Shown here piece by piece: positions 1-41,797 of a DNA stretch of 41,797 nt. Position numbers and translations under genes: made by a program. The stretch spans positions 1 through 41,797 of the IMG/VR virus record IMGVR_UViG_3300048072_000006; one strand, written 5' to 3'. The notes below the pieces were generated by a model. That model had not been told where the DNA came from, ran no database searches, and worked only from the letters and a program-made list of their open reading frames with translations. Numbering within the stretch: the stretch's first letter is position 1; each line of letters begins with the position of its first letter. The stretch is from a virus.

Positions 1-127
1 GCCTCAAGGACGCAGAGGCCATAGCTGTAGATGTTGCCGAACACGCGGTCTCCGGGCTCCAGCGCATGGAGCAGGCGGTTATACCAGACGCCCTCGATCG
101 TCGTTGAGTGCGCGACCCATCCGGTGA
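1..127. repeat. 127-bp terminal direct repeat, identical to 41671..41797 (circular-assembly overlap)
   Basis: Read directly: 'gcctcaaggacgcagaggcc...cgcgacccatccggtga' occurs at both window ends, base for base. Confidence 0.95.
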
Positions 128-2696
128 TGCCGTCACTGGACCCTGCTGCCACATATTTGTCGAATATGACGACCGGGGGCTGTGCCGCCGGGGTGCTGAG
201 ATAAAGCCCCTGCTCATAGCCATGGAGCATCAGGCGGTAGGTCTGGACGAATGCAGGAGCCGTGTTGAAGCTGACCTCGTTCGACCATTCCCAGTTGATT
301 TCATCGCCCGGCATCCCTGCCGCCACGTCCTGCGCCACCAGCGCGCGCAGTCCGGTCTCGGTGGTGAAGTCATGGACGTTGATCCACGGGTTAAAGCCGC
401 CATCGGCGCAGAAATCCAGGAACAGGCCGACGCCCCGACGAGTCTGCGGGCCGCTCCACCAGCCACGATCCTGCCCCGCTGCCGTCTCGGTGCTCGATGA
501 GCCGCCGTTGATGTCCCATGCACTCATCCAGCGCACCGTCTTCGTGCCGATCGCCTGATAGTCGCTCATCATGAGCGGCTGATATGCAATCTCGGGGCTG
601 GCATCGCCCACCGGCAGGATCGTCCAACTGTTCGTGCTGTTGAGCGTGCCGGAGATTTTCAGGAACAGGCCGCGCTGGGCAACGGTCGTCGGCGAGAAGG
701 TGAAGCGCATCGTGCCGACGCCGGCGACCACCGACCATGCCTGCGTCACCGTGAAGTTGGAAATCTGCTCGACGGAAACGACGAGGCCTGGCTCGCAGTC
801 GTCGACACGGACTTCGTGCTCACCCAGCGAGGCCGTCGAGCCGCCGCCTTCCCACAGCTTGCAGATGACCCCCGTGTCGCCGGAGGGGTAGGCGCTCGGG
901 AAGCGCCCGGATGTCAGCGCGAACGTGCCATCATAAGGCGACTGGTAGTTCGTCCTGGCCCACGTGCCCTTGAGCGCCACATCTTTCGCGACGAGCGCCG
1001 AATAAGCGGACCCCGCATAGTTGACGTTCATGCCGAGCCGGAACGGCAGCGTGCCGGAATAGGGCTCTTCGATGAAGTAGGCCGGGCGATACACCGCGCT
1101 GGCCTCATAGCCGGAGGTGAAGGTCATCTCGGCCGAGAAGGTCGGCGCCGTGCCGAGCAGGCTGTTATATTGCGCCTGCGTCAACGTCAGGTCCGCCGTC
1201 CAGACGCCATCGGTGGACGTGATGTTGCTGCCGGCCGTGGGGGCCAGGAATGTCGTCTCGTCCTGCGCGGTGATGCCGATCAGGACGCTCGACGGGACCA
1301 GCCCGGCGCCATGCTCGCCATGCAGGGTGAGCACGACATTGCCCCCGCTCGGCGGCGCGAAGCTCGCCTCGTTGACGGCAAACAGGCTGGCGACGCGCGT
1401 CATGCGCGGGCCATAGATGCCGGCGCCCGGCACACTGTAGGGGAAAGCCCAGCGAATATAGGTGTTATAGCCGACCTGCTCGACGGAGGATGAGATGTCG
1501 AGCCCGCCGCCGGGGGTCAGCGACGTATAGGTGTCGGAAAAGGCGGTCGTCTCGATCTCGACAAAAAGCCGGTCGCCGATGATCGAGATCAGGACGCCGC
1601 AGTTCGCCTTGCCGGTGCCGAGTGCGCCCGCCGGGAAGGTGTAGACATCGACACCGGATGCGTTGAGTGCCTTCGTGACCTTGGAGAAGGTCGTGCCGAG
1701 CGAGACGCTGTAGAAATAATATTCTGCGGCGCCGGGGACGGTGGAGCGCACGCTGACCGTGACATAGGTCGAGGGGGAGGGAGGGGCGCTCGGGCCGATG
1801 CGGAAAAAGAAATTCTGGTCGCTGTTGCCGCTGTCAAACGCCGTTGCGTGGCTGGCACTCGCCGCCGAGGACAGGCCGAACCACGGCCCCGGCGAACTTC
1901 CGCTCTGCGCTTTCACGACAAGCTTGGCCTCGTCAGTGCCGGACGTGACAAGCCCGGCATGGATACCGGTCAGCGCCTCGATCTGCGTCCCTGGGGTCGC
2001 GCCAGTCAGCGGCCAGTAACCCTCGACAGGCAGCGAGAAGGCCGAACAGAGCCAGTCCGCGCCATATCGCGCGGCGATGCGCAGACTCTTGATGTTCATG
2101 TCGCCGGTGATCTGGTAGCTGCCGGTGGTGGCGCCGCCGATGTCCGTCCATGTGTCGGGCGATCCGCCGTTCCATGGCGCGCTCTGCCACTTCACCTCAT
2201 CCGGGCCGGAGTCGTAGCTGCCCGTCACGGTGCTGCCGACCACGAAGTCCCCGGCGATCGTCGGGTTGTTGTGCGTGATGACGGTGTCGGTGATGACGGT
2301 ATCGGCATGGGCTGCCCCGGCGATCTCGCCCTCGCTCGGGTCTGAGATCGCCGCGCGCAGCACCTTGTCCTCGTCGACGCTGGTCACATAGACGGTCCAG
2401 CCCTGCTCGCCATCCTCGATGAAGCTCAGCGTCGCGGACGGGAAGGCGTCGCCCTCGATGTCCCCGGCGACAACAGTGTTGCTGTAGGGCGCCGTCACCG
2501 CCGCGATGCCGATGGTGGCCGGCGCGGCAGGCGATGCCGAACTGCCGCTCAACGCCACCGTGAAGGTCACGGCGGTGACATCGTCCGTCACTTCATCAAC
2601 GGACGGCAGGGCAGTGATGGACCATTGCGCAGGCGGCGCCGCCCCCCAGTCCCGCCCGCCCAGCCATAAGCCGAGGCCAAGCCCGAAAGCGCTCAT
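1..2696 (-). CDS. Giant tail fibre/host-specificity protein, 5' part (about 898 codons). It continues across the junction into 40560..41670, about 1,268 aa in total.
   Basis: The minus frame is open from ATG 2694-2696 down to nt 1. An in-frame TGA lies at 2715-2717 with no start codon between it and the ATG. Via the 127-nt overlap the frame matches track ORF 40560..41714 (41714-41672=42). My translation ends '...GDRVFGNIYSYGLCVLEA', which is the start of that ORF. It is absent from the track because it has no stop inside the window. The N-terminus has Ig/Calx-beta-like 'VTFTVALSGSSASP'. Confidence 0.85.
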   Translation of the reverse strand, partial: MSAFGLGLGLWLGGRDWGAAPPAQWSITALPSVDEVTDDVTAVTFTVALSGSSASPAAPATIGIAAVTAPYSNTVVAGDIEGDAFPSATLSFIEDGEQGWTVYVTSVDEDKVLRAAISDPSEGEIAGAAHADTVITDTVITHNNPTIAGDFVVGSTVTGSYDSGPDEVKWQSAPWNGGSPDTWTDIGGATTGSYQITGDMNIKSLRIAARYGADWLCSAFSLPVEGYWPLTGATPGTQIEALTGIHAGLVTSGTDEAKLVVKAQSGSSPGPWFGLSSAASASHATAFDSGNSDQNFFFRIGPSAPPSPSTYVTVSVRSTVPGAAEYYFYSVSLGTTFSKVTKALNASGVDVYTFPAGALGTGKANCGVLISIIGDRLFVEIETTAFSDTYTSLTPGGGLDISSSVEQVGYNTYIRWAFPYSVPGAGIYGPRMTRVASLFAVNEASFAPPSGGNVVLTLHGEHGAGLVPSSVLIGITAQDETTFLAPTAGSNITSTDGVWTADLTLTQAQYNSLLGTAPTFSAEMTFTSGYEASAVYRPAYFIEEPYSGTLPFRLGMNVNYAGSAYSALVAKDVALKGTWARTNYQSPYDGTFALTSGRFPSAYPSGDTGVICKLWEGGGSTASLGEHEVRVDDCEPGLVVSVEQISNFTVTQAWSVVAGVGTMRFTFSPTTVAQRGLFLKISGTLNSTNSWTILPVGDASPEIAYQPLMMSDYQAIGTKTVRWMSAWDINGGSSSTETAAGQDRGWWSGPQTRRGVGLFLDFCADGGFNPWINVHDFTTETGLRALVAQDVAAGMPGDEINWEWSNEVSFNTAPAFVQTYRLMLHGYEQGLYLSTPAAQPPVVIFDKYVAAGSSDGITGWVAHSTTIEGVWYNRLLHALEPGDRVFGNIYSYGLCVLE

Positions 2697-2771: not shown

Positions 2772-4397
2772 TCACACCACTCTGATTTGAAGGATAGAAC
2801 CGTTTCGGTAGAAGCCGCCCACGGGAACGCCGCCAGCCGCAGCGGCAGCGTCATCCGCATAGGATGTGAGGTTTTTGGTCCTCGCCGACACGATGTGGCC
2901 GGCAGGCTCCAGTTCTGTGTTCCCGGCAGAAGTAAACCTGGCCCCCACCCCTTGTCGGGTGATCGAGAAGATCGTGACTCCTGCGGGGTCGATGCCGTAA
3001 TAACCTTCACCGTCAGCGAATGCGCGCGTCTTGATCTTCCCATCAGAAGGAAGCGCCATCATGTTCGTGCCGTGCCCGGTGCGGCAGATATTGCGACAAA
3101 AAAGCCCCGCCACTGAAGGGAGTGTAGCTGCGTCGTCCATCTCGAAGTGTTCGATGATAACCTGCGCGTTCGTTCCGCCGCCAACGGTTACGCCTTGGCC
3201 TACCGCAGCGTGGTAAATATAAACCCGCGCAGGCGCTTCAAACGGCAGTGACGTTCCGAGCAGAAACATACCCCACGGAGATCCGGAGCGCGCCCCGTAG
3301 ACCGTGTTGACAAGCGTGCCGATTGTAACCTCGTCACAATATCCGAGCACAAGACCTTTCCCGCCGGTCCCAGATATACCGCACTGGATTATGCGGATAT
3401 CGGTGACGGTCACATCTGGCCCCCCCGCGACCCTATACCCGTCTATTTTTACACACTCGCCATTATGGCCATAAGGTGAGTAGGCGAACAGGCGGCCGAT
3501 GCAATTCGCGCCCGACAGGACGGAATTGGACCCAACGGTTCCGACGCCGGTACTGTCAACCGTGGCTAATAGAAGCCCGCGCCCACCCGCCTGCCAATTC
3601 ACCGCGACCACGCTGTCAATCGTGCAGGACGAGAACGATTTTGCCTCAAAGCAAAACGATGCGCCGGTTGCCCCGTTGAAGGTCGCGTCGCCATCAAGGG
3701 TAAGATTCCCTATCCAGCGCAGCCCTTGGATCGGCCCCGCCACCTTGAAGAGCGAGCCGCCCGCAACACCACCCCACACGAAACGCGTGCCCGCCTTCGC
3801 GGTAGAATACCACGGGTCTGAAGTGTCAATCAGCGCGTTCGCGTTGGAAGTATCGCCTCCCCAGATAATCGTGCAGTTGTTCCCCACGGTGGACAAGGCC
3901 GTTGTGGTGCCGTTACCGTAAATTACGGTAGAGTTGATCTTGATCTTGGCGCTCGGCATGATGAGCACTTTGCCGGGGCCGCACCAATCGAATGCGGCCT
4001 GCACGGCCACCGAGTCGTCCGTCACACCATCGGCGGCGATGCCGAAGTCCCCCCAGAACCTGATTGTATCAGTGAACCGCTTTAACTGTCCGCCGATCGA
4101 CGTTGACGCATAAGCCAAGGCTTTATCGAAGCTGATCAGATCGGCGCCATCGCCGGAGGCGGCGGAGGCGAGTTCGTCAAAAACTTGAACATCGATAGCC
4201 TGCTTGACCCGAAGTGACGACATGCGGTCGTCATTGGACGAGCCGGCCTCTGCCTCCGCCTGAGACGCAAGAGGAACAGCTACATCAACAAGCCCCTTTG
4301 GCGTCGTCTTCTCGACCGTCGTCCCATTGTCGAAAATGACAGCGGAGCCTGCTGTTGCTGTGCCGGCGGGGAGGTCTTTTGGTCTGATCTGTGCCAT
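2772..4397 (-). CDS. Tailspike with pectate-lyase-like right-handed beta-helix (probable polysaccharide depolymerase), 541 aa
   Basis: 'FWGDFGIAADGVTDDSVAVQAAFDW' matches the Pectate_lyase_3/GH28-type N-terminal motif, followed by Gly/Asn/Thr-rich beta-helix-like repeats. The start was re-picked at ATG 4397 ('MAQIRPKDLP'), 1 nt after the upstream stop at 4399. Confidence 0.85.
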   Translation of the reverse strand: MAQIRPKDLPAGTATAGSAVIFDNGTTVEKTTPKGLVDVAVPLASQAEAEAGSSNDDRMSSLRVKQAIDVQVFDELASAASGDGADLISFDKALAYASTSIGGQLKRFTDTIRFWGDFGIAADGVTDDSVAVQAAFDWCGPGKVLIMPSAKIKINSTVIYGNGTTTALSTVGNNCTIIWGGDTSNANALIDTSDPWYSTAKAGTRFVWGGVAGGSLFKVAGPIQGLRWIGNLTLDGDATFNGATGASFCFEAKSFSSCTIDSVVAVNWQAGGRGLLLATVDSTGVGTVGSNSVLSGANCIGRLFAYSPYGHNGECVKIDGYRVAGGPDVTVTDIRIIQCGISGTGGKGLVLGYCDEVTIGTLVNTVYGARSGSPWGMFLLGTSLPFEAPARVYIYHAAVGQGVTVGGGTNAQVIIEHFEMDDAATLPSVAGLFCRNICRTGHGTNMMALPSDGKIKTRAFADGEGYYGIDPAGVTIFSITRQGVGARFTSAGNTELEPAGHIVSARTKNLTSYADDAAAAAGGVPVGGFYRNGSILQIRVV

Positions 4398-4398
4398 C

Positions 4399-5199
4399 TT
4401 AAAATGCCCGGATGATCTTGTTCGCCACAATAGTGGGCTGAACATTGGGGTGGGCCTCGCCGCCACCGGCAGAGGAAATGCTGTGCGTGTGGGAGCTAGC
4501 TGACGATGTGCCCGCAGAGCCGCTCGTCACAGACTGGTAAGGGCCTGATCCGCCGCCTCCGGGTGTAAATCCGAAGTGCTGCTGGAAGCTGATTGTATGC
4601 GAGTGAGCGCCGTTTGAGCCTGTGGCCGCGCCATGGTCATGCGCAGGCATCTGCTCCAGCGTGAGCGCATGGCTTTGAGCGCCGCCGGCAGCACCGAGCG
4701 TCGTCCCGTCTACAGGGCTGGTGAGGCGGCCAGCGACAGTGCCGCCCATGTCATCACGCCCGGCGGATGTGCGCCCGCGACAGTCCGGGAGGTTGAACGT
4801 CGATGCCCCGTCGCCAGAGCCGTATTTCGTGCCGAGTACAGCGAACAGGGCGGCATAATCGACGCGGGAGATTGCCTGACCATAGCAGAGGAACCAACCA
4901 TCGGGGGCCGTATCGCCCCAGAAGTCAGCGCTCGCGCCAATCGGAAATCCCTGCGTTGAAAGCTGGCCAAGCGTGACAGCATCGCTGCTGTTCGTGCCGG
5001 GGGCGAGATTGATAGCCTTGAAGCCGCCATGGTTGAGATCGGCCTGCATTGCGCCGACCCCGGCACGGCTCAGCGAGCCAGTCAGGGCAGAGGCGATGTC
5101 TTGGAGCGGGGGATTGTGCTGCGACGGGAGAACTTGATCGCCATTATTGACGATTGCCCCCGCAGGCAAAGAATACACGCCAGTGCTATCTCTAGGCAT
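4399..5199 (-). CDS. Tail fibre protein with phage tail-collar domain, 266 aa
   Basis: 'WFLCYGQAISRVDYAALFAVLGTKYGSGDGASTFNLPDCRGR' is the classic collar-domain motif. The C-terminus is Gly/Ser/His-rich. Start ATG 5199 is preceded by GGAGG ('gatggaggcaaggaatATG'). Confidence 0.85.
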   Translation of the reverse strand: MPRDSTGVYSLPAGAIVNNGDQVLPSQHNPPLQDIASALTGSLSRAGVGAMQADLNHGGFKAINLAPGTNSSDAVTLGQLSTQGFPIGASADFWGDTAPDGWFLCYGQAISRVDYAALFAVLGTKYGSGDGASTFNLPDCRGRTSAGRDDMGGTVAGRLTSPVDGTTLGAAGGAQSHALTLEQMPAHDHGAATGSNGAHSHTISFQQHFGFTPGGGGSGPYQSVTSGSAGTSSASSHTHSISSAGGGEAHPNVQPTIVANKIIRAF

Positions 5200-5448
5200 A
5201 TTCCTTGCCTCCATCTGGCATGATGGCAAGGTCATAACCGATACCATCCTGAATAGGGTGGCCGCCAGATCGCGCTTGCGTAAAATTATTTAGATTGGGG
5301 TTGTGCCGCATGAACCCTGGCTTTCCTTGTTTTCAGGAAAGCGCATGAGGTAGGTTCAACCGCGCTATGCCGACCTTGATAGCACAGAGCGGCCCAGCGG
5401 GAAAGCGCCATTGTTGCGGCCAAGGAAGGAATAGGCTATGCCAGATCA

Positions 5449-8197: not shown

Positions 8198-9024
8198 TAC
8201 GGACGAACTCCCCAGCCCTTGAGACGATCCATGACCTTATATGGGTCAGCGCCATTGCGCACCGCTTCCTCGGCTTGCTTCAACAGATCGGCATCGGACA
8301 TTCCCGCCGGGCGCTGCGGAGCGCTCGGGGCCGGACTTAGTGGACTGCCGTTCGGAATATTGGCCGGAGATGGTGACGCCGTTCCGGCTACCGGCGAGAC
8401 TGCTTGACCACCTCCTCCCGTTAGTGCCGTCATGAACCCGGACTGCGGGCCACCGTAAAAGCCGCCATCAGGCAGCGACGCCGTAATGAACGGATCGTTC
8501 CGCGACTGAAGCAAGCGCCGGGCCTCAGCCTGATATTCAGGCGTGCCCGGCTGAAACCCGGCGTCGACAAGCATCTGCTGAAATTCCAGCGGCTTTGCAT
8601 GCTTCGGCATATGCGCCTCAAGCATCGCCATCGCCACCTTCTGCGTGACAGGGTCGCCGCTGGAAATGCCCGCTGCGATCTCAGGTGGCAGATTAAGCCC
8701 GGAAAGCGCCTCCTGCGACGCTGTCGCCGCTGCCTGATCCTGCTTGCGCACGTCGCGCATAGACATCGCGCCAAGCACATTATCCGCCACACGGCCAAGC
8801 CCCTGCGTCCAGTGACCGACAGGCGAATAATCCGACTGCATCATGTCTGCCGCGCGCGCGCGTTCTATGGCAAGCTGCTCAGGCGTCATGCGTGCGCCAC
8901 CCTGTCCCCATACGAACGGGGATTGCGGCGCTTCCAGCATGGGCGCGTTGGCGAGGATGGAGGCAATATCGTTATTGCCCCATGGCCTCTCAGGATTAGG
9001 CCCGCTCATGGGCATGATCGTCAC
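8197..9024 (-). CDS. Virion internal protein (hypothetical), 275 aa
   Basis: GTG 9024 overlaps the upstream stop (GTGA); alternative ATGs lie at 9015 and 9009. The C-terminal linker is Pro/Ser/Gly-rich. Function is positional only. Confidence 0.65.
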   Translation of the reverse strand: MTIMPMSGPNPERPWGNNDIASILANAPMLEAPQSPFVWGQGGARMTPEQLAIERARAADMMQSDYSPVGHWTQGLGRVADNVLGAMSMRDVRKQDQAAATASQEALSGLNLPPEIAAGISSGDPVTQKVAMAMLEAHMPKHAKPLEFQQMLVDAGFQPGTPEYQAEARRLLQSRNDPFITASLPDGGFYGGPQSGFMTALTGGGGQAVSPVAGTASPSPANIPNGSPLSPAPSAPQRPAGMSDADLLKQAEEAVRNGADPYKVMDRLKGWGVRP

Positions 9025-9971
9025 TGGACGGCCCTCCCATAATCGACAGCCTTATACCCTCCAACGCCCCCAACGACGGCATCAGGGTTCACCTGCTCAA
9101 CGTCCTGCGCCATCAGACCGATGTGGATCGGGCCACCCCACTTGTAGCGGTAGGAGTAGACGGGCAGGCCATTGTCGAGCGTGCCGACGCGGGAGATGTC
9201 TTGCTTGACGCGCATGTCGGACATGATGGCCGCAGACCCAAGCGATCCAGCCAGCCCGAACAGGCCGCCCATAGCCGACTGACTGGCCGCAAGCTTGTTC
9301 TGATAGTTGTCCCGCACCAGCCCGGAATAGTCCACACCTGCAACACCCGTCTGTGGGGTCGCAGAGGACATGGAAGCCGGGTTGCTCACCTGCGAGCCAG
9401 ACAGTAGTGCAGTAAGCTCGTTGATGGGCTGGTTGCGGGTTGCCAGCGCCTCGGAGAACGCCTGAGAGCGCCCTGTGAGAGCAAGCTGGTTATTCTGGTC
9501 CGTCTGCGTGCGGCCAATGCGCTCCAGCTCGCTATTCCAGCCCGACGAGCCGGGACGCAACCCGCGATTGATGAGCTGCGCTTCAAGGCGCGCCATATCC
9601 TGCTGCTGCTGCGGGGCAATGCGGGACTGCCCGAGATCATAGGCCCAATCCGCCGCTGCCTGATTGTCGAACGTGAAGGGGTCGGACAAGGTATCAGCAA
9701 CGCGCGCGCTCTGATCCTGAGCAATGCCGGCGAGGTTTGTTTGCGCCGCCTGCGACTTGTCGAAAATGGCCTGCTGTTCAGGCGAGAACGTCGTTGTCTG
9801 CGAGAAGGACGGCAACGTCACAACCTTGCCGGAACTGTCCGTATATTGCGTCGTGCCAGTCTGATTATAGGCCACCGAACCCCACGGGTTGTTCTGGTTA
9901 ACCATGTTCAGCAATTGCTGCGAAACCGCCGTGTCGCGGTTCATCCCGGACTGCGCTTGAGCAGTCTGCAT
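9021..9971 (-). CDS. Gln/Asn-rich virion protein with C-terminal Peptidase_S74 intramolecular-chaperone (self-cleaving) domain, 316 aa
   Basis: 'SDMRVKQDISRVGTLDNGLPVYSYRYKW...IGLMAQDVEQVNPDAVV...KAVDY' is the S74 signature. The start is uncertain: I prefer ATG 9971 ('MQTAQAQ') over the track's TTG 10124 extension. Confidence 0.8.
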   Translation of the reverse strand: MQTAQAQSGMNRDTAVSQQLLNMVNQNNPWGSVAYNQTGTTQYTDSSGKVVTLPSFSQTTTFSPEQQAIFDKSQAAQTNLAGIAQDQSARVADTLSDPFTFDNQAAADWAYDLGQSRIAPQQQQDMARLEAQLINRGLRPGSSGWNSELERIGRTQTDQNNQLALTGRSQAFSEALATRNQPINELTALLSGSQVSNPASMSSATPQTGVAGVDYSGLVRDNYQNKLAASQSAMGGLFGLAGSLGSAAIMSDMRVKQDISRVGTLDNGLPVYSYRYKWGGPIHIGLMAQDVEQVNPDAVVGGVGGYKAVDYGRAVQ

Positions 9972-10020
9972 TGGATCAGGGGGGGCGGGTGTCGAAACGA
10001 TTTTACCAACCCTCCGCCAT

Positions 10021-10239
10021 ATGGTATTGAGCCATATGAACTTCCTTGACGAGAAAGACGTCGCCCGCTTTTGGTCCAAAGTTGACCGAAGGGGCGCTGA
10101 TGAATGCTGGCCTACCATGGGCAAATCGGTAGGGAAACCACGGCACCTGAGTGGTGCGCCCTCGGTTGAGGCCCTTAAATCTGGCGGGGTAAGGCGAGGT
10201 TATAACCAATTCACTGCTTCCTATGCCAAGGATGCGTGA
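10021..10239 (+). pseudogene. Possible relic of an HNH homing endonuclease (N-terminal part only)
   Basis: 'VARFWSKVDRRGADECWP...GYNQF' resembles the conserved N-terminus of phage HNH endonucleases ('FWSKVD..G..CW.W.G...GYG.F'), but the ORF stops before any H-N-H catalytic segment. It lies on the opposite strand in a lower-GC gap of the late operon. Confidence 0.35.
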
Positions 10240-10271
10240 AGTGGTGTTCAGCCGCTGGCGGGCACATTAGC

Positions 10272-10682
10272 CTATTGCCGGGATTTTTGCAACACGCCTT
10301 CTGCGGGGACAATGAACTCATCGCGCAGGATGCCGACAATCAAGCCGTCGCACTCCGGCCCGAAATGATTGCGCAGCACGCCCTCACGCTTGCCGCCCAG
10401 CCTTTCGGCGTATCGCGCAACGTCTTCCGATGCAGTGATCATCGTCATCCGCTCGCAGCCGAGCATGCCGTATGCATAGCAGCCCACGGCCCGCAGGATG
10501 GCCTTGTTCCATCCCGTACCGGCTGCAGAGATATGGACATCGCTACCCTCGAAGTGATTGAGCAGCACTCCGTTGATGATCTCGCCGTTCCGTTCCGTCC
10601 CGATAGCAACATAAGGCGGACAGAGGCCAAAGCACAGTTCATCCGAGATGAACTTCGCCACAGCATCCCCGACGACGATCAT
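10272..10682 (-). CDS. GNAT-family N-acetyltransferase-like protein inside the virion module, 136 aa
   Basis: '...CERMTMITASEDVARYAERLGGKREGVLRNHF' fits the GNAT beta4-alpha3/alpha4 pattern. ATGA overlap with the upstream 634-aa gene. Confidence 0.65.
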   Translation of the reverse strand: MIVVGDAVAKFISDELCFGLCPPYVAIGTERNGEIINGVLLNHFEGSDVHISAAGTGWNKAILRAVGCYAYGMLGCERMTMITASEDVARYAERLGGKREGVLRNHFGPECDGLIVGILRDEFIVPAEGVLQKSRQ

Positions 10683-12583
10683 GTCACCACTTCCGCCACG
10701 GTATAGGACAGGTCCATGCGGATAAGCTCATCATCGAATGCGCCTATTGAGCCGCTGGTGACTTGGTAAGTTGGGGCAAGCGTGTAACCATACCCGCCGC
10801 CGCTGTTCCAGGGCTGGTTGATGACGGAGGGGGTTGTGTCTCCCCATCTGGATTCTCCCCAGACGGCTGTTCCCCAGAGGGAGCCTCCGACCTGGGCCAG
10901 CGCGTCAGGGGCGGCGGGGAGGTCTTCGCTGAAGTCATAATTGATCCCGCATTTTGCATTGACCTTCACATTCGCCCGCGACACCGCGCGCACCATGCCT
11001 CCTATCTTTCGGGACATTGGAGAACCGCAGTCCTCGAACATCGGAATAATCGAACCGGTATAAGCCGCGCCATCGTCGCTTCCGCCGACATTGGCGAGGA
11101 AAATCCGCCCCTCCGTCGATCCGAAGTAAAGCTGCCCCTCGAACACCTCCATGCACAGGACCTTCCACCCCGTGAACCGGCACCACGCCCCAGTCTCGGC
11201 ATTGACGACAAACGCCACCGGATTGCTGTCTCCGATCAGGTCAGGCGGAACGACAAGTGCCATCTTCTCTTCGGGCCACAGCTCGCAAATCCAGTTCTCG
11301 GCCCCGCGAAGGGTGAGCGCATTGGACCATGCGTCTGCGATATTGTAGGACACTGTAGCCACGTTGAGACTGGTAACGTCGAGTTCGATCGCTTTGGAAA
11401 GCGGGACCAGTCCGACGCTCGTCGCAATGGCAATGTCGCCGCCGCCACGGAAGAACGCGCGCTTGCCGAGCGGGCGGCCGGTGCGATACGTACCGACTTT
11501 CGTCCATGACACGTCATCGGGGTTGATGCCCTGAAAGATCGCGGCCTGCCCCTCGCTGGTGACGAACACGACCTGCTCGCTCAACCCCCCGCTATCCGAT
11601 GCCTGCAATGACCAATTCGATCCAAACAGCAGTGCGCCACCGAGATCGAAGATGCCCGCCATAGGAAACAATGTGGCGTCACCTCCCACTTGATCGGGGG
11701 GCAGATACCAGACGTTCATGCTCTCCTTTTCGATGAAGTAGATCGCGGACTTGTAGCTGAACACGAACGACATGGCAGCGCTGGAGAGCGTGTCGAATGC
11801 CATGCCCGGCGCCATAAGGACCGGAACGCCATCTGCGGTTGAACTGCCAGCAACATCGCCCGTCAGCGTCTCATTGTCCTGAAAAGTCCCCGTGATGCCG
11901 TAAATGTAGAGATAGCCGACGCCGGGCGCCGTTTCCTCGACAGAATTGACCGTCGCCGTCGCCCCGGACGTTCCGCCCGTCACAATCTCGCCCGGCTCGA
12001 ACGCAGCGCTTTCAGCGTCATAGGCGATGCGATAATAACCTCCGGGCATGTTCGGCCAGAATGCCGTGCCATCGAAAATGAAACCGGGGTCTGTCCCGTT
12101 CACGCCGACCAGATAAACCCCGCCAGTGGTCGCAAATTGAACAACGCTCCAGTCTCCGCTTGTCAGGTCAGTGGCGACATGCATCCCGTCCGTAGAGAAC
12201 CAACCGAACGTGTCGCCGCCCTCGGTTTCGATCAGGTCGTCATCTTCGTCCACGATTTCGGAGCCATCCGGGAAGACAACATTGGTCAAATCGTAAATGA
12301 CCGTCTCACTTGCCCCAAACAGCTTGCGGTTGTTGCCGTTGCGATAAGAGAACAGGGATTTTGCATCCCCGAGATCGGCAAGGGTGGCATAACGCTGTTT
12401 CCCCCGCCGCAGTTTGACCGTCTCGGCGCGGGGGAAGTAATTGTCCATCAACGCCGCGCCTGGCGTCTGCCCCTTGGGAAGCGCCAGAGAGCGATTGCTG
12501 ATCCAGCCGCCCACAGGGGCCGGGAACATCATGGTTTCCGCCCTGCGCGGCTTAGGGCGGATAACCCGGCGCGCGTAGGCCAT
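10679..12583 (-). CDS. Tail nozzle/tubular-protein-B-like structural protein, 634 aa
   Basis: Large beta-rich ORF directly after the adaptor-like gene. The start was re-picked at ATG 12583 ('MAYARRVIRPKP'), giving an ATGA overlap with the upstream stop. Function is positional. Confidence 0.65.
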   Translation of the reverse strand: MAYARRVIRPKPRRAETMMFPAPVGGWISNRSLALPKGQTPGAALMDNYFPRAETVKLRRGKQRYATLADLGDAKSLFSYRNGNNRKLFGASETVIYDLTNVVFPDGSEIVDEDDDLIETEGGDTFGWFSTDGMHVATDLTSGDWSVVQFATTGGVYLVGVNGTDPGFIFDGTAFWPNMPGGYYRIAYDAESAAFEPGEIVTGGTSGATATVNSVEETAPGVGYLYIYGITGTFQDNETLTGDVAGSSTADGVPVLMAPGMAFDTLSSAAMSFVFSYKSAIYFIEKESMNVWYLPPDQVGGDATLFPMAGIFDLGGALLFGSNWSLQASDSGGLSEQVVFVTSEGQAAIFQGINPDDVSWTKVGTYRTGRPLGKRAFFRGGGDIAIATSVGLVPLSKAIELDVTSLNVATVSYNIADAWSNALTLRGAENWICELWPEEKMALVVPPDLIGDSNPVAFVVNAETGAWCRFTGWKVLCMEVFEGQLYFGSTEGRIFLANVGGSDDGAAYTGSIIPMFEDCGSPMSRKIGGMVRAVSRANVKVNAKCGINYDFSEDLPAAPDALAQVGGSLWGTAVWGESRWGDTTPSVINQPWNSGGGYGYTLAPTYQVTSGSIGAFDDELIRMDLSYTVAEVVT

Positions 12584-13287
12584 CAGGCACCCGCGCCCAG
12601 CGGGAATGGCCATGCGGGATAGGAGCCCGGCCATGCCCGCCGTGATTTCGTGCGAATGACAAATGACCCGCTATCCTTGCCGGCGTGATAGCTCAGCGAG
12701 GAATCGAACTGCTCCTGATCGCCGTCCGAGGCCAGCCCCTTGTTGTCACGATACCGCCAGACAAGGCCAAGCATGAGCAGTTCTTCCGGCAGAACGAAGG
12801 CGTCTGCGTCGTTATCGAACACCGCCTTGGGTGCGAGATTGGGCGCGATTGCCCAATTCTTGCTGATGTAAGGGAATCGCGCTTCAGCCCCAGCCGACGG
12901 GGCGGGGTATACGTTGAGCTTGTTACCGAAGATGCACCACACTCCGGGTAGCGAGCTCAGGCTGTTCTGCTTGAAGAACAGGAAGTCATCGACCGTGGCG
13001 CAATGACCGTAGCCCCATGCCCAATTATCCACGTCGCGAATGGTCGTGGTGAGCATCTGCCGAGAATAATCGGCGGGGAGATCGAACGCCTCTTTTGAGC
13101 CGTCGCCGACAAGTGAGGCGATCTTGACCAGCGCCTGCCAGTCATGCTTCTGCGCAACGTCATCCGCAACCGTATTGACCATGTCGGTCATTTCCAGTTC
13201 GAACGTGTCGTCCACACCGAAGAACGCCCCCGGCTTGCGGGCAATCAGCTTGACTGCGGCAGACTGGAGGGCGCTCAGGACGGTCAC
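12583..13287 (-). CDS. Head-tail adaptor/tubular-protein-A-like structural protein, 234 aa
   Basis: GTG 13287 overlaps the upstream stop (GTGA). The size and position between the capsid block and the nozzle gene fit an adaptor. No motif was recognised. Confidence 0.6.
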   Translation of the reverse strand: MTVLSALQSAAVKLIARKPGAFFGVDDTFELEMTDMVNTVADDVAQKHDWQALVKIASLVGDGSKEAFDLPADYSRQMLTTTIRDVDNWAWGYGHCATVDDFLFFKQNSLSSLPGVWCIFGNKLNVYPAPSAGAEARFPYISKNWAIAPNLAPKAVFDNDADAFVLPEELLMLGLVWRYRDNKGLASDGDQEQFDSSLSYHAGKDSGSFVIRTKSRRAWPGSYPAWPFPLGAGA

Positions 13288-13964
13288 TGGCTGGCCTTGG
13301 CTTCATTCAGGAGGGAAATCAGCGTGTCACGGCTCGGGTTGCCGATTGGCTTGGCCCCGACGATAGCCGCGATCTCTTCCTTGATCTGCTGATTGCTCAT
13401 GTCAGCGTATTCGTCCGCTTGGTCGGCAATGGGCTTCTGCAAGGCGGCAAGCTGCGACTTCAGTTCCTCAACCTCACTGGCCAACTTATGCCGGTCGCTG
13501 CGATCAGCAACATATTTGCGAGCCGCATCCTTGAGCGCGTTGGCGTCCATGCCGAGGCTCTTGAGGTTGTGGCCTTCAAGCTGAAGCAATGCCTCGACGG
13601 TATGCACCTTGCGGGCCGCGCACAGCGACACCTGCGCAGGGGTGATGCCATAGTCGCGGAGGGCGGACAGCGGGGTCCCGTGAACGCCCTGCGCCTGCCC
13701 ATCCTTCCATGCGGAATATTCATCAGAGAAGCGCTCCGCCCATGTCACTCGGCGAAAGCCGTCCATGCCGCACTGCTCATTGACGCGGGCCGTGTGGACC
13801 AGATTGCGCTCTCCGGCGATGTGGACTGAAACCATCTCGATCTCTTCAAAGATCGGCTGCCCTGCATGTTCGGATTTGGCGATGTTCTCAATCGTCTCAT
13901 AGGAGAAGATCGGATAAACAGCCTTTTCAGCCAAGTCGGTTTCGGGAACGTAAATCGCGGACAT
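13284..13964 (-). CDS. Hypothetical virion-module protein with C-terminal HeH/SAP-like helix pair, 226 aa
   Basis: Start re-picked at ATG 13964 ('MSAIYVPE') after AGGAG. The C-terminus 'QQIKEEIAAIVGAKPIGNPSRDTLISLLNEA' looks HeH/Rho-N-like. Confidence 0.65.
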   Translation of the reverse strand: MSAIYVPETDLAEKAVYPIFSYETIENIAKSEHAGQPIFEEIEMVSVHIAGERNLVHTARVNEQCGMDGFRRVTWAERFSDEYSAWKDGQAQGVHGTPLSALRDYGITPAQVSLCAARKVHTVEALLQLEGHNLKSLGMDANALKDAARKYVADRSDRHKLASEVEELKSQLAALQKPIADQADEYADMSNQQIKEEIAAIVGAKPIGNPSRDTLISLLNEAKASQ

Positions 13965-38959: not shown

Positions 38960-39207
38960 TCCTTCTCCGTCACCTTGGCTCGTGCCACATTGCGGTCTTT
39001 CAGGGCGATCGATCCGGCCGTCGCCCCGATGCATGTCGCGATTCCCATCGTGTAGGCTATGCAGAAACTGTCGAATGTCGCATGCACCTTCCCGGCCCAC
39101 ACCAGCGCGGGGGCTGTCACGATATAGACGGCAGAACCGAACGCCCCAAGAATGCGCTGTATTTCATACTCGCCAGAGATTCCCTTGAGAGCGTTCAGGA
39201 TGGTCAT
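38956..39207 (-). CDS. Two-TM holin-like membrane protein, 83 aa
   Basis: ATGA-coupled to the endolysin stop. TM segments 'ILGAFGSAVYIVTAPALVW' and 'FCIAYTMGIATCIGATAGSIAL', with a charged C-terminus. Confidence 0.6.
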   Translation of the reverse strand: MTILNALKGISGEYEIQRILGAFGSAVYIVTAPALVWAGKVHATFDSFCIAYTMGIATCIGATAGSIALKDRNVARAKVTEKE

Positions 39208-39767
39208 GTCACACCTCGATAGATTCGCTCCTCCGCCGCCCGGCGCCGCGTCAATCCATTGAGGACATGCCCGGCTTGCTTGTTCCACCGCCCGAACTGC
39301 GCTGCGGCACCGGCATAGTCGCCCTCTTTATGCAGGCGCCGCAACGTGCTTTCCTTGAAAGCCTCGGCCCCGATGTTGTAGGCAAGCGACACCATGGCAT
39401 CGAACTGGTCCTGGGTTGTCGGCGCCGATCCGAGCCCGGACGACACCGCTGATGCGAACTTGCCCATGTCCCGTTCAAACCTGGCGTCGGCTTGCGCCTC
39501 GGTCCAGACCATGCCCATCTTGACATCAGGGCCGGTCGAGCCCCATCCGATGGTCGGAACATCGTGGGCTGTCGGCATATAGGCTTGCAGGCGAAGGCTC
39601 TCAAATCCCTTGATGAAATCCTTGATGCGCTTGGACGGCTCTCGGCTCGCCACCACGCTGTGCAGCCCGAGGCCCTTTGCGATGGCGGCCCATGTCACCG
39701 GGCCGGCGATGCCATCATCGTCGACGCCAAGATGGCGCTGAATTTCCTTGATGATCTCTGTCGTCAT
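39204..39767 (-). CDS. Endolysin: PG_binding_1-like domain plus GH24 (T4/lambda-type) lysozyme, 187 aa
   Basis: 'IQRHLGVDDDGIAGPVTWAAI' (peptidoglycan-binding repeat). 'IKGFESLRLQAYMPTAHDVPTIGWGST' is the GH24 catalytic Glu/Asp/Thr region. ATGA-coupled start at 39767. Confidence 0.88.
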   Translation of the reverse strand: MTTEIIKEIQRHLGVDDDGIAGPVTWAAIAKGLGLHSVVASREPSKRIKDFIKGFESLRLQAYMPTAHDVPTIGWGSTGPDVKMGMVWTEAQADARFERDMGKFASAVSSGLGSAPTTQDQFDAMVSLAYNIGAEAFKESTLRRLHKEGDYAGAAAQFGRWNKQAGHVLNGLTRRRAAEERIYRGVT

Positions 39768-39943
39768 TTGACGCCTTTCAATCCTTGCCATGCGGCGATG
39801 CCAATCATCCCGGCGATCAGGGCCTTCCAGACAAACGCCCAGAGCCCGCGACCGAGATCGCGATAAAACTCATTCTTGATCTTTTCGCACAGAGCGTCGA
39901 CGACTGCGGCTACATCTTCGTCTGTCAGTGTTCTCTGGCTCAT
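39764..39943 (-). CDS. Single-TM holin/antiholin-like protein, 59 aa
   Basis: 'LWAFVWKALIAGMIGIAAW' TM segment near the C-terminus. ATGA couplings on both sides. Confidence 0.55.
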   Translation of the reverse strand: MSQRTLTDEDVAAVVDALCEKIKNEFYRDLGRGLWAFVWKALIAGMIGIAAWQGLKGVK

Positions 39944-40392
39944 CGATCCGTCCAAGTAAGAACCTTATCGAGCATAGAAGCCCGACAATGATGGTCACGT
40001 CGAAAACGATATAGCCCATGCCCCAGCGTCCATATTGAGACCGTAAGAAGCTGTATGAGGAACAGGCCGTCGAGCCCGCCCAGATACAGCGCCGTGGCCC
40101 CACCACGGATGCCGAATCCGGCGTGAAAGCCGAATTGAAACATGTATGTAATTGCGATGAATGACTGCCACCGGCTTACCGGCGGGAACGTGATCGCCGC
40201 CGCCGCCAGAAGGTCCATCGCCCAGAACCATGCCCAAGGCGTGTAGTTGCCTGAAATGGCGACGAAGCTTGAGCACATCGCCCAGTTGAGTGCCAGCACC
40301 AGCGCACAGCGGCGCGCGCCATCGGGCCCGACCGCGAACGATGCGGACACGACGAGCGCGAGCAGAAGAAACGCGGTGCCAGCTTCGATCAT
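39940..40392 (-). CDS. Multi-pass (4-5 TM) membrane protein at the head of the lysis cassette, 150 aa
   Basis: Hydrophobic segments run throughout the protein. No family recognised. Confidence 0.6.
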   Translation of the reverse strand: MIEAGTAFLLLALVVSASFAVGPDGARRCALVLALNWAMCSSFVAISGNYTPWAWFWAMDLLAAAAITFPPVSRWQSFIAITYMFQFGFHAGFGIRGGATALYLGGLDGLFLIQLLTVSIWTLGHGLYRFRRDHHCRASMLDKVLTWTDR

Positions 40393-40559: not shown

Positions 40560-41797
40560 TCACGCACTCGCCCGCACGGTGATGTCGATCTCGTCCGACC
40601 ATGTCCCGATCGTCGCCGTCCCGGTGACGGCGGTCAGGCCGAAGGTGGCGGCGGTGTCGGATGCGACATCGCCGGTCGTGATCGAGACGGGCTTGAACCA
40701 TTCCCCGGCGGCGAATGACACGCTGCCGGTCTGGCTGCCGAGCGAGAATGCCCAGTCGACGCTGTGCGCGCTGTCCAGCGGGCCGACGCGGTAGATATAG
40801 GCCCGCAGCGTTCCCTCGATCGGCGATTTCTTGGTGTAGAGGTGGAAGACCGGGATGTCGTTTTCCCACGCCTCTTTCCACTCCTCGACGGCGACGCCGA
40901 TCGGGTTGATGTTGCCCGATGCGCTGCCGGCGGTGCGCTCGCCCATGCCCCACCAGACCGCCCAGTTTGCCGCCTCTTTCCAATAGTCGGCGAACAGGAC
41001 CAGCTCCCCGCCTGGGTTGTTGTTCCCGTAATATTGCAGGCCCATCTGGATGATCTGGCCCATGCGGAAGTCGCGGCGGATAGCGGCGGCATAGGCGGTG
41101 TCGGCATCATTGCCGCTGGTTCCCGCCTCATGGAAAAGCCATTCGTAGCCGTTGGTACACCGGCTCAACAGTGCGTGGCCCCCTGCTTCGGCCTTCGCCC
41201 GCATGTCAGTGCGCAGACCCTTGGCGCGGGACATGTTCGTCACCATCGTGCCGGCACCTGTCGGGGCGGCGCCGTTGCTGTCGTGGAAGTAGGTTGAAAA
41301 GGCACCATCAAGCTGCTCGGCCAGTGGCCGGGTGTCGTTCGTCACGTCATAATCGGGGATGTAGGGGGCCTGAGAAAACTTGATCGGATAATCCCACATA
41401 TCCGCATAATCAAGCACATTGGCGTCCAATGTTCCGTCGCTGCGGCTCCCGTAAGCCATCAGGAAGCGCACACGCTTGCGCCAGTCCAGCACGCCCTGCT
41501 GCTCATACTCGTCGGCGACAATATCGATCATCCATTTCGTCTTGACCGCATAGGCGCGCCTCCATGCTGTGTCGATCTGGCCCGCCGTCACCACGCGGGT
41601 GAGCACCGGAGTGCCGGAACTGTTCGTGAAATCATCGGCGAAATAGGTGCTGGCGGGCAGGCTGGTCAGCGCCTCAAGGACGCAGAGGCCATAGCTGTAG
41701 ATGTTGCCGAACACGCGGTCTCCGGGCTCCAGCGCATGGAGCAGGCGGTTATACCAGACGCCCTCGATCGTCGTTGAGTGCGCGACCCATCCGGTGA
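40560..41797 (-). CDS. Giant tail fibre/host-specificity protein, 3' part (the last 127 nt duplicate nt 1..127)
   Basis: Same frame as 1..2696 across the circular junction. The track's 'M' at 41714 is an internal codon. The stop is at 40560. Confidence 0.85.
   Translation of the reverse strand, partial: TGWVAHSTTIEGVWYNRLLHALEPGDRVFGNIYSYGLCVLEALTSLPASTYFADDFTNSSGTPVLTRVVTAGQIDTAWRRAYAVKTKWMIDIVADEYEQQGVLDWRKRVRFLMAYGSRSDGTLDANVLDYADMWDYPIKFSQAPYIPDYDVTNDTRPLAEQLDGAFSTYFHDSNGAAPTGAGTMVTNMSRAKGLRTDMRAKAEAGGHALLSRCTNGYEWLFHEAGTSGNDADTAYAAAIRRDFRMGQIIQMGLQYYGNNNPGGELVLFADYWKEAANWAVWWGMGERTAGSASGNINPIGVAVEEWKEAWENDIPVFHLYTKKSPIEGTLRAYIYRVGPLDSAHSVDWAFSLGSQTGSVSFAAGEWFKPVSITTGDVASDTAATFGLTAVTGTATIGTWSDEIDITVRASA
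41671..41797. repeat. Second copy of the 127-bp terminal overlap
   Basis: Identical to 1..127. Confidence 0.95.

Follow-up and report, generated by a model that had tools for sequence, protein, structure and literature searches.

A large gene crossing the contig junction of a Brucella phage Tb-like podophage: a probable tail-associated polysaccharide depolymerase with a predicted clan GH-A barrel

The virus contig IMGVR_UViG_3300048072_000006 (41,797 nt, analysed whole and called the window below; all coordinates are window positions unless another contig or protein is named) carries on its minus strand a gene of 1,268 codons that is split by the contig ends. We hold with moderate confidence that the product is a large, modular, tail-associated polysaccharide depolymerase and that the phage is a temperate-looking podophage related to Brucella phage Tb; we infer the enzymatic activity, the substrate, the attachment to the virion and the host. 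The gene is real, is under purifying selection and occupies the end of the tail module that is variable and devoted to host recognition. Homology with a bacterial protein family supports a (beta/alpha)8 barrel of glycoside hydrolase (GH) clan GH-A at residues about 546–1172.

A gene split by the contig ends

The first 127 nt of the window (1–127) are repeated exactly at its other end (41671–41797), and IMG/VR assigns the record to its class with direct terminal repeats, at 100% completeness. On the strength of the identical ends and this class, the genome is best read as a circle of 41,670 bp. On a circular path, a de Bruijn assembler whose largest k is 127 leaves an overlap of exactly this length.

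The initial annotation had proposed that one long gene wraps the junction and can be restored by joining complement(40560..41670) with complement(1..2696). The joined frame is open, with 3,807 nt giving 1,268 codons plus a TGA stop and no internal stops, and codon 899 straddles the junction (nt 2, 1 and 41670). The annotation had also stated that the open reading frame (ORF) track was limited to the last 384 codons. A listing without open ends does return just 40560..41714, a 384-aa ORF with a GTG start, and this call arises from a GTG at 41714 that is an internal codon of the large gene inside the repeated end. More generally, ORF callers truncate any gene that runs across the arbitrary origin of a circular contig. 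The gene is laid out on the contig as follows.

1..2696, minus strand: 5′ part of the gene, codons 1–898 and the first two bases of codon 899, with the ATG at 2696–2694
40560..41670, minus strand: 3′ part of the gene, from the last base of codon 899 to codon 1268 and the TGA stop (40560–40562)
41671..41797, no strand assigned: second copy of window 1–127, an assembly overlap or a terminal repeat

Continuity across the junction is independently demonstrated by two other contigs that hold the gene in one piece. The ENA contig L003 carries it uninterrupted at its positions 10001–13816, encoding a protein of 1,271 aa (P0001) with 91% amino acid and 90–92% nucleotide identity to the window. The IMG/VR contig IMGVR_UViG_3300049436_000043 (L005) carries an uninterrupted gene body with 93% amino acid and 93–95% nucleotide identity. 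Differences between the window and L003 number 84, 64 and 202 at codon positions 1, 2 and 3, respectively, and 162 codons differ only synonymously against 113 that differ non-synonymously. Overall G+C of the gene is 0.646 and G+C at third codon positions (GC3) is 0.83; this GC3, the uninterrupted copies and the substitutions biased to third positions are the grounds on which we regard the gene as real and under purifying selection. Because GC3 and codon-position bias mark the minus-strand frame as truly coding, the plus-strand ORFs in 108..2345 are antisense shadows, which is how they had been annotated at the outset.

These data also bear on the explanation that the long ORF is an assembly artefact, with ends that do not join or a chimeric frame. 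The window alone gives no proof of reads spanning beyond the 127-nt repeat, which leaves some room for such an artefact. We find it hardly credible, since two independent contigs from other samples contain the uninterrupted gene with the same junction sequence, the open frame and the purifying selection on it extend to either side of the junction, and the bacterial family described below aligns on both sides of it by hhalign.

Variation along the gene was uneven. Among three near-identical phage copies, amino acid changes cluster in residues 301–400 (about nt 1497–1796) and 901–1100 (about nt 41067–41666), with 13–19 changes per 100 codons, while residues 501–800 and 1101–1268 are almost invariant in protein and carry many synonymous changes. 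The two variable segments are possibly specificity-determining surfaces. GC3 was 0.66–0.75 in the terminase, portal, capsid, tail and endolysin genes; the elevated value of the large gene relative to these other late genes fits a recent acquisition and suggests import from a more GC-rich source.

A predicted glycosidase barrel shared with a sphingomonad family

Neither the 1,268-aa protein nor pieces of it had a usable match in Pfam, PHROGs, NCBIfam, the PDB (phmmer and profile searches) or INPHARED (tblastn). An exhaustive phmmer search with residues 541–1271 of P0001 against 1.84e9 representatives returned only P0001, P0004 and P0005. P0004 (1,527 aa, 29% identity) is encoded by the last structural gene of a podophage contig, and P0005 (1,741 aa, 28% identity) lies in a P2-like prophage of a Sphingobium metagenome-assembled genome (MAG); the phage relatives as a group, these two among them, share just 25–29% identity. 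Word-based searches, together with pattern scans across collections of viral, genome and metagenome sequences, gave only L003, L005, P0004 and P0005 as phage-type copies, and a profile scan of 401 Sphingomonadaceae genomes yielded no additional phage-type copy.

A profile of the phage domain scanned against the Sphingobium MAG detected a chromosomal ORF of 595 aa (P0007; E 2.5e-8 and 3.4e-5). P0007 is one member of a family that numbers 1,204 proteins or more, almost all of which are named 'hypothetical protein' and come from Sphingobium and Sphingomonas, and the bacterial homologues likewise have no match in Pfam, NCBIfam, or PDB sequences or profiles. Alignment of the phage and bacterial alignments with hhalign gave a probability of 99.5% (E 3e-23, 470 columns), matching positions 6–632 of the phage domain to bacterial positions 102–581. 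The phage proteins are ~17–20% identical to the bacterial family. Because MAFFT misplaced the phage segment of strands 3 and 4 as an insert in the joint alignment, structure prediction was carried out on a bacterial homologue rather than on the phage domain with the bacterial sequences.

The AlphaFold model of P0007, built from 121 alignment rows, had a predicted local distance difference test (pLDDT) score of 85 overall and about 96 over residues 110–575, and a predicted template modelling score (pTM) of 0.82. It contains eight beta-alpha units, each a strand and then a helix, with these elements (P0007 residues).

111–116: strand 1, with GMN
138–247: beta-sandwich insert
269–272: strand 2, with RFM
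318–323: strand 3
349–353: strand 4, followed by N355-E356
411–416: strand 5
440–450: strand 6, with APY
493–504: strand 7, with YE498AGQH
538–541: strand 8

A Foldseek search of this model against the PDB gave 163 matches at E<=1e-3. The top matches all belong to clan GH-A (GH51, GH10, GH53, GH79, GH2, GH5, GH26 and GH1), with a probability of 1.00, template modelling (TM) scores of 0.40–0.57 and 9–15% identity. As modelled, the domain of the bacterial family is a (beta/alpha)8 barrel of clan GH-A. Since the phage domain is homologous to this family, the same fold is supported for phage residues about 546–1172. The clan GH-A glycosidase proposed from the bare sequence is thus upheld transitively, through the 99.5% hhalign match, the P0007 model and its Foldseek matches, with glycosidase activity a prediction. 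Mapped onto the window, the protein divides into the following segments.

2634..2696, minus strand: N-terminal 21 residues (MSAFGLGLGLWLGGRDWGAAP), the sole segment without a DNA-level match in L005
1062..2633, minus strand: residues 22–545, a non-catalytic body with no family match, conserved in P0004
1..1061, minus strand: barrel part 1, residues 546–898, with strands 1–4 and the start of a phage-specific insert
about 597–974, minus strand: beta-sandwich inserted between strands 1 and 2, residues about 575–700
276..281, minus strand: codons of N806-E807, the predicted acid/base Glu after Asn, just past strand 4
40851..41670, minus strand: barrel part 2, residues 899–1172, with the rest of the phage-specific insert and strands 6–8
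41142..41147, minus strand: codons of Y1074-E1075, the predicted nucleophile Glu on strand 7
40563..40850, minus strand: C-terminal beta-strand domain, residues 1173–1268, which P0004 and P0005 conserve and the bacterial family lacks

The 21 N-terminal residues may be a short attachment peptide, and residues 22–545 look beta-rich, Ig-like or lectin-like. A motif GRDWGA (FGRDWGA) within the first 20 residues recurs at the N-terminus of the L005 protein. The phage-specific insert comprises ~95 residues after helix 4 (about 837–931) and spans the contig junction; strand 8 of the window protein reads LVLFADYW.

Motifs of the window protein correspond to P0007 as follows.

Strand 1: LGMN, window 554–557; P0007 GMN
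Strand 2: VRWM, window R722; P0007 R271
Strand 3: PWIN, window W771; P0007 W320
Strand 4: INWEWSNE, window E803, N806 and E807; P0007 E352, N355 and E356
Strand 6: APY, window 1000–1002; P0007 444–446
Strand 7: YEW, window Y1074 and E1075; P0007 Y497 and E498
RRDFRMG, window 1097–1103; P0007 DPRMG

The motifs quoted in the initial annotation are located at residue 770 (PWINVHDF), at 802–807 (WEWSNE) and at 1074–1082 (YEWLFHEAG). An 'NE' pair after a beta-strand had initially been taken as the acid/base signature. The pair does lie after strand 4; N806-E807 is invariant in P0001, P0003, P0004 and P0005, E803 is also kept in all phage relatives, and the equivalent N355 and E356 are kept in all 120 of 120 bacterial members, as are R271, W320, Y446, Y497 and E498. 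P0004 has the motifs VEWTNEP and YEF, and P0005 has CEYSNEE and YEV; the 'YE' pair is thus present in all phage relatives, with P0005 displaced by 4 columns in the MAFFT alignment. The stretch YEWLFHEAG had been named as a possible source of the nucleophile. The stretch itself is retained as the predicted source, with the Glu of 'YEW' rather than that of 'HEAG' in the role: E498 of P0007 lies on strand 7 and aligns with E1075, which is therefore the predicted nucleophile. E1080 of 'HEAG' was considered and rejected, since P0004 reads YEFLHGD there.

Conservation of these residues bears on a second explanation, in which the protein is a tail receptor-binding protein whose barrel binds glycan in the manner of a lectin and has lost cleavage. 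Such a role would suit the ~17–20% identity to the bacterial family, the large inserts and the concentration of amino acid change at 301–400 and 901–1100, as expected for binding surfaces. However, all phage relatives, at only 25–29% identity, retain the Asn-Glu pair and the Glu of strand 7 together with the Arg of strand 2, the Trp of strand 3 and the Tyr of strand 6, and inactive derivatives usually lose one catalytic Glu. Consequently, we judge a binding-only barrel quite improbable and favour a catalytic depolymerase.

The genomic surroundings of the bacterial family suggest what such an enzyme would cleave. Members of the family are encoded at L015 10001–11746 and on L017, L022, L023 and L024, from Sphingobium and relatives. 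Five of the six bacterial homologues examined directly follow a conserved exopolysaccharide locus, which encodes on one strand a Wzc-like ATPase, a Wzz/GNVR protein, an outer-membrane protein and Poly_export, and on the other a tetratricopeptide repeat (TPR) protein, a Bac_transf priming transferase, glycosyl- and acyl-transferases and Wzy_C. The sixth is located among polysaccharide O-acyltransferase genes. By eye, P0007 has a hydrophobic N-terminal stretch and then a Pro/Thr-rich linker, and in one case a PEP-CTERM domain gene was seen near the bacterial homologue. Because the sole cellular relatives close Wzy-type exopolysaccharide loci of Sphingobium and Sphingomonas, the likely substrate of the phage enzyme would be a host exopolysaccharide or capsule. 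Loci for other exopolysaccharides, such as psl, carry in this position a glycanase that acts on their own polymer. The simplest interpretation is an enzyme family directed at a sphingomonad exopolysaccharide, with the phage protein as a counterpart borne on the tail.

Tail-module position and exchange between phages

The terminase, portal, capsid, tail tube A/B, internal protein and collar genes are syntenic with those of Brucella phage Tb, to which this phage is related. Identity to Tb is 50% for the portal, 58% for the capsid, 44–52% for tail tube A/B and 42% for the collar fibre, and a 367-aa virion structural protein at 9021–10124 is 56% identical. Ahead of its endolysin gene, Tb has a fibre-like gene and a pectin-lyase-like tailspike; here, this place is taken by a spike-like gene of 564 aa, unrelated to those of Tb, and by the 1,268-aa gene. 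Because the large gene replaces the fibre and tailspike slot of Tb before the lysis genes, we assign it to the variable host-recognition end of the tail module. The gene order is collar fibre, 564-aa spike-like gene, 1,268-aa gene (the last of the tail module) and lysis genes, and the gene has the same position at the end of the tail module in L003, L006 and L007. The neighbouring features are listed below.

4399..5247, minus strand: tail-collar fibre (Pfam Collar, E 2e-21), the counterpart of Brucella phage Tb ORF27 (42% identical)
2772..4466, minus strand: upstream neighbour encoding 564 aa, fibre- or spike-like and weakly matched by tail-fibre PHROGs, in a non-conserved host-recognition region of the tail module
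39204..40392, minus strand: downstream lysis region
39940–40392, minus strand: 150-aa protein with hydrophobic stretches that resemble membrane spans by eye
39764–39955, minus strand: 63-aa protein with a C-terminal hydrophobic stretch
39204–39791, minus strand: endolysin with Phage_lysozyme and PG_binding_1 domains

A 75-nt spacer (2697–2771) separates the stop codon of the 564-aa gene from the ATG of the large gene, and no clear Shine-Dalgarno sequence was seen in it by eye.

Comparison of the copies showed where the gene has been joined to other sequences. The window and L003 are similar in nucleotide sequence from precisely the ATG to 9 nt past the stop codon, and the other late genes of the two phages are unrelated. 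Besides the large gene, the sole nucleotide similarity between them is a stretch of 107 nt (79%; window 39661–39767, L003 14136–14242) where the endolysin genes begin and encode the peptidoglycan-binding part. In L005, DNA similarity sets in from codon about 20, and the body is fused to a different N-terminal part of 433 residues. This part (L005 4702–6000) contains at least five near-identical 23-residue repeats (GNLMTLSGDIADLPSGLTYAYFL) that look leucine-rich-repeat-like, and then an Ig-like stretch.

Directly after the P0005 gene (L007 8001–13226; Sphingobium sp. MAG JAMHVU010000141.1) come genes for an 84-aa protein and a muramidase. Its N-terminus is Baseplate_J (Pfam E 4e-21), and this baseplate part matches nearly the whole of R-pyocin PA0618 (PDB 6u5b, E 2.6e-34). 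In L007, the gene is on the strand opposite to the remaining tail genes, and the baseplate-J protein is extended by ~1,400 residues that contain the GH-A-like barrel. Altogether, different tail types join a body of ~1,250 residues to four or more distinct N-termini, and the sequence comparisons show the gene moving as a cassette between unrelated phages. Such a range of N-termini is the hallmark of a host-recognition module carried on tails, and it is the best available evidence for a tail location. The proposal that the gene encodes a tail protein is borne out indirectly, by its place as the last tail-module gene before the lysis genes and by the fusion of a distant relative to a complete baseplate-J/PA0618-type protein.

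The same observations weigh on a third explanation, in which a GH-A-type depolymerase acts outside the virion as a soluble late enzyme, freed at lysis, that strips exopolysaccharide from neighbouring cells or the biofilm matrix. The protein has no recognisable tail anchor and no PHROG tail match in the Pfam and PHROG searches, the full gene from ATG to stop has been swapped between phages with unrelated tail genes, and it sits at the border of the tail genes and the lysis cassette, all of which would fit a soluble enzyme. However, P0005 is covalently joined to a full baseplate-J/PA0618-type protein, the L005 body is joined at codon about 20 to another large N-terminal module in an anchor-plus-body pattern, and 1,268 residues, of which ~520 at the N-terminal side are non-catalytic, are more typical of a fibre or spike than of a free enzyme. 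We therefore regard a free enzyme as rather unlikely.

As a tail-associated depolymerase, the protein would begin with a short N-terminal peptide, continue with ~520 residues of non-catalytic, probably carbohydrate-binding or spacer domains, and then form the barrel (546–1172) with its beta-sandwich between strands 1 and 2 and the phage insert after helix 4; a small C-terminal beta domain would come last. By analogy with all GH-A enzymes, it would cleave a glycosidic bond with retention of configuration, with E807 (after strand 4, preceded by N806) as the acid/base and E1075 (strand 7) as the nucleophile. The virion may in this way dig through the polysaccharide layer to the cell surface.

Several observations weigh against the tail-associated depolymerase. 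The fold evidence for the phage protein comes via homology: an AlphaFold model of the phage domain (P0001 541–1271, 6-row alignment) reached a mean pLDDT of 41 and was left unused for fold searches, and the TM-scores of the bacterial model to PDB enzymes are modest (0.40–0.57). The predicted acid/base and nucleophile are ~268 residues apart owing to the inserts, far beyond the spacing in most GH-A enzymes, and the bacterial family has never been characterised. Pfam and PHROG searches found no known tail-attachment domain and no PHROG tail match in the window protein. The whole frame, including the start codon, is common to the unrelated phage L003, which is unusual for a tail-docking protein. 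Finally, host and substrate are read from relatives only.

The host is probably a sphingomonad, to judge from three pointers, none of which is proof: the copy in a Sphingobium prophage, the 61% G+C of the window and the occurrence of Tb-like capsids in Sphingomonadaceae. Tb-like capsid genes were found in 2 of 401 sampled Sphingomonadaceae genomes. In two Sphingomonadaceae genomes (L020 and L021), prophage capsid genes are 55–58% identical to the major capsid protein of the window; therefore, Tb-like podophage heads occur in sphingomonads.

Relation to known enzymes and phage depolymerases

Through this gene, a large family of proteins without annotation came to light in Sphingobium and Sphingomonas, genera known for industrial gums and biofilms; its members are probably enzymes that trim exopolysaccharide. 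If active, the proteins would represent a new glycoside hydrolase family and a pair of cellular and viral enzymes that may act on the same exopolysaccharide, and the gene would clearly illustrate how a host-recognition cassette passes from one phage tail to an unrelated one. We give about even chances to the full proposal: that a new GH-A family is common to sphingomonad exopolysaccharide loci (>1,000 unannotated genes) and a few phage tail proteins, and that the phage version is exopolysaccharide-specific and moves as a ~3.75-kb cassette between podophages and onto a P2-like myophage baseplate-J protein. Searches of the literature for depolymerases of Sphingomonas phages or for tail enzymes of clan GH-A yielded nothing specific.

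The bacterial model shares with the retaining hydrolases of clan GH-A (the '4/7 superfamily') the (beta/alpha)8 barrel, the strand-4 Asn-Glu, the strand-7 Glu and the Arg, Trp and Tyr of strands 2, 3 and 6. The nearest solved folds are GH51 alpha-L-arabinofuranosidases (6ZT7, 2VRK, 3UG3), GH79 beta-glucuronidase/heparanase (5BWI, 7PR9, 7PSH), GH53 galactanase (6GPA) and GH10 xylanase (2WYS). It differs from the known GH-A families in its low identity (9–15%, with no Pfam, NCBIfam or PDB sequence match) and in a beta-sandwich of ~130 residues that separates strands 1 and 2; the phage domain is further extended by the insert of ~95 residues behind helix 4 and by a long helical segment that precedes strand 7.

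A cellular parallel is PslG of the Pseudomonas aeruginosa psl locus, a GH39, clan GH-A glycanase that is encoded in an exopolysaccharide locus and trims the polymer of that locus. The bacterial relatives described here resemble it in their GH-A fold and in their position at the end of a Wza/Wzz/priming-transferase/Wzy locus. Unlike PslG, they form a different, unnamed sphingomonad family, with a function predicted from fold and locus. At only ~17–20% identity to this family, the phage copy is not a recent capture from it.

On the phage side, P0005 starts with a complete copy of the baseplate wedge protein known as gpJ in P2 and as PA0618 in R-type pyocin (6U5B), and the depolymerase body is therefore physically a baseplate part in that prophage; unlike P0005, the window protein is without a baseplate-J domain. 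Like phage tailspikes and capsule depolymerases, such as the beta-helix of P22 gp9 and the beta-propeller of the K1F endosialidase, the window protein is a large late product of the variable end of the tail module, is exchanged between phages as a module and is presumed to degrade surface polysaccharide. Unlike these, its catalytic domain is predicted to be a triosephosphate isomerase (TIM) barrel of an unnamed family. The nearest viral models are weak (TM 0.24–0.34), namely a glycosyl hydrolase of Lactobacillus phage Bacchae and a tail protein of Escherichia phage Goslar. The DepoScope survey of INPHARED phages (doi 10.1101/2024.01.15.575807) assigned 85.8% of the depolymerases to beta-helices, 12.1% to beta-propellers and only 1.0% to TIM barrels, the last being 10 of about 980 with an assigned fold. 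TIM-barrel phage depolymerases are thus already known and rare, and the catalytic family found here, as yet unnamed, is probably new within clan GH-A.

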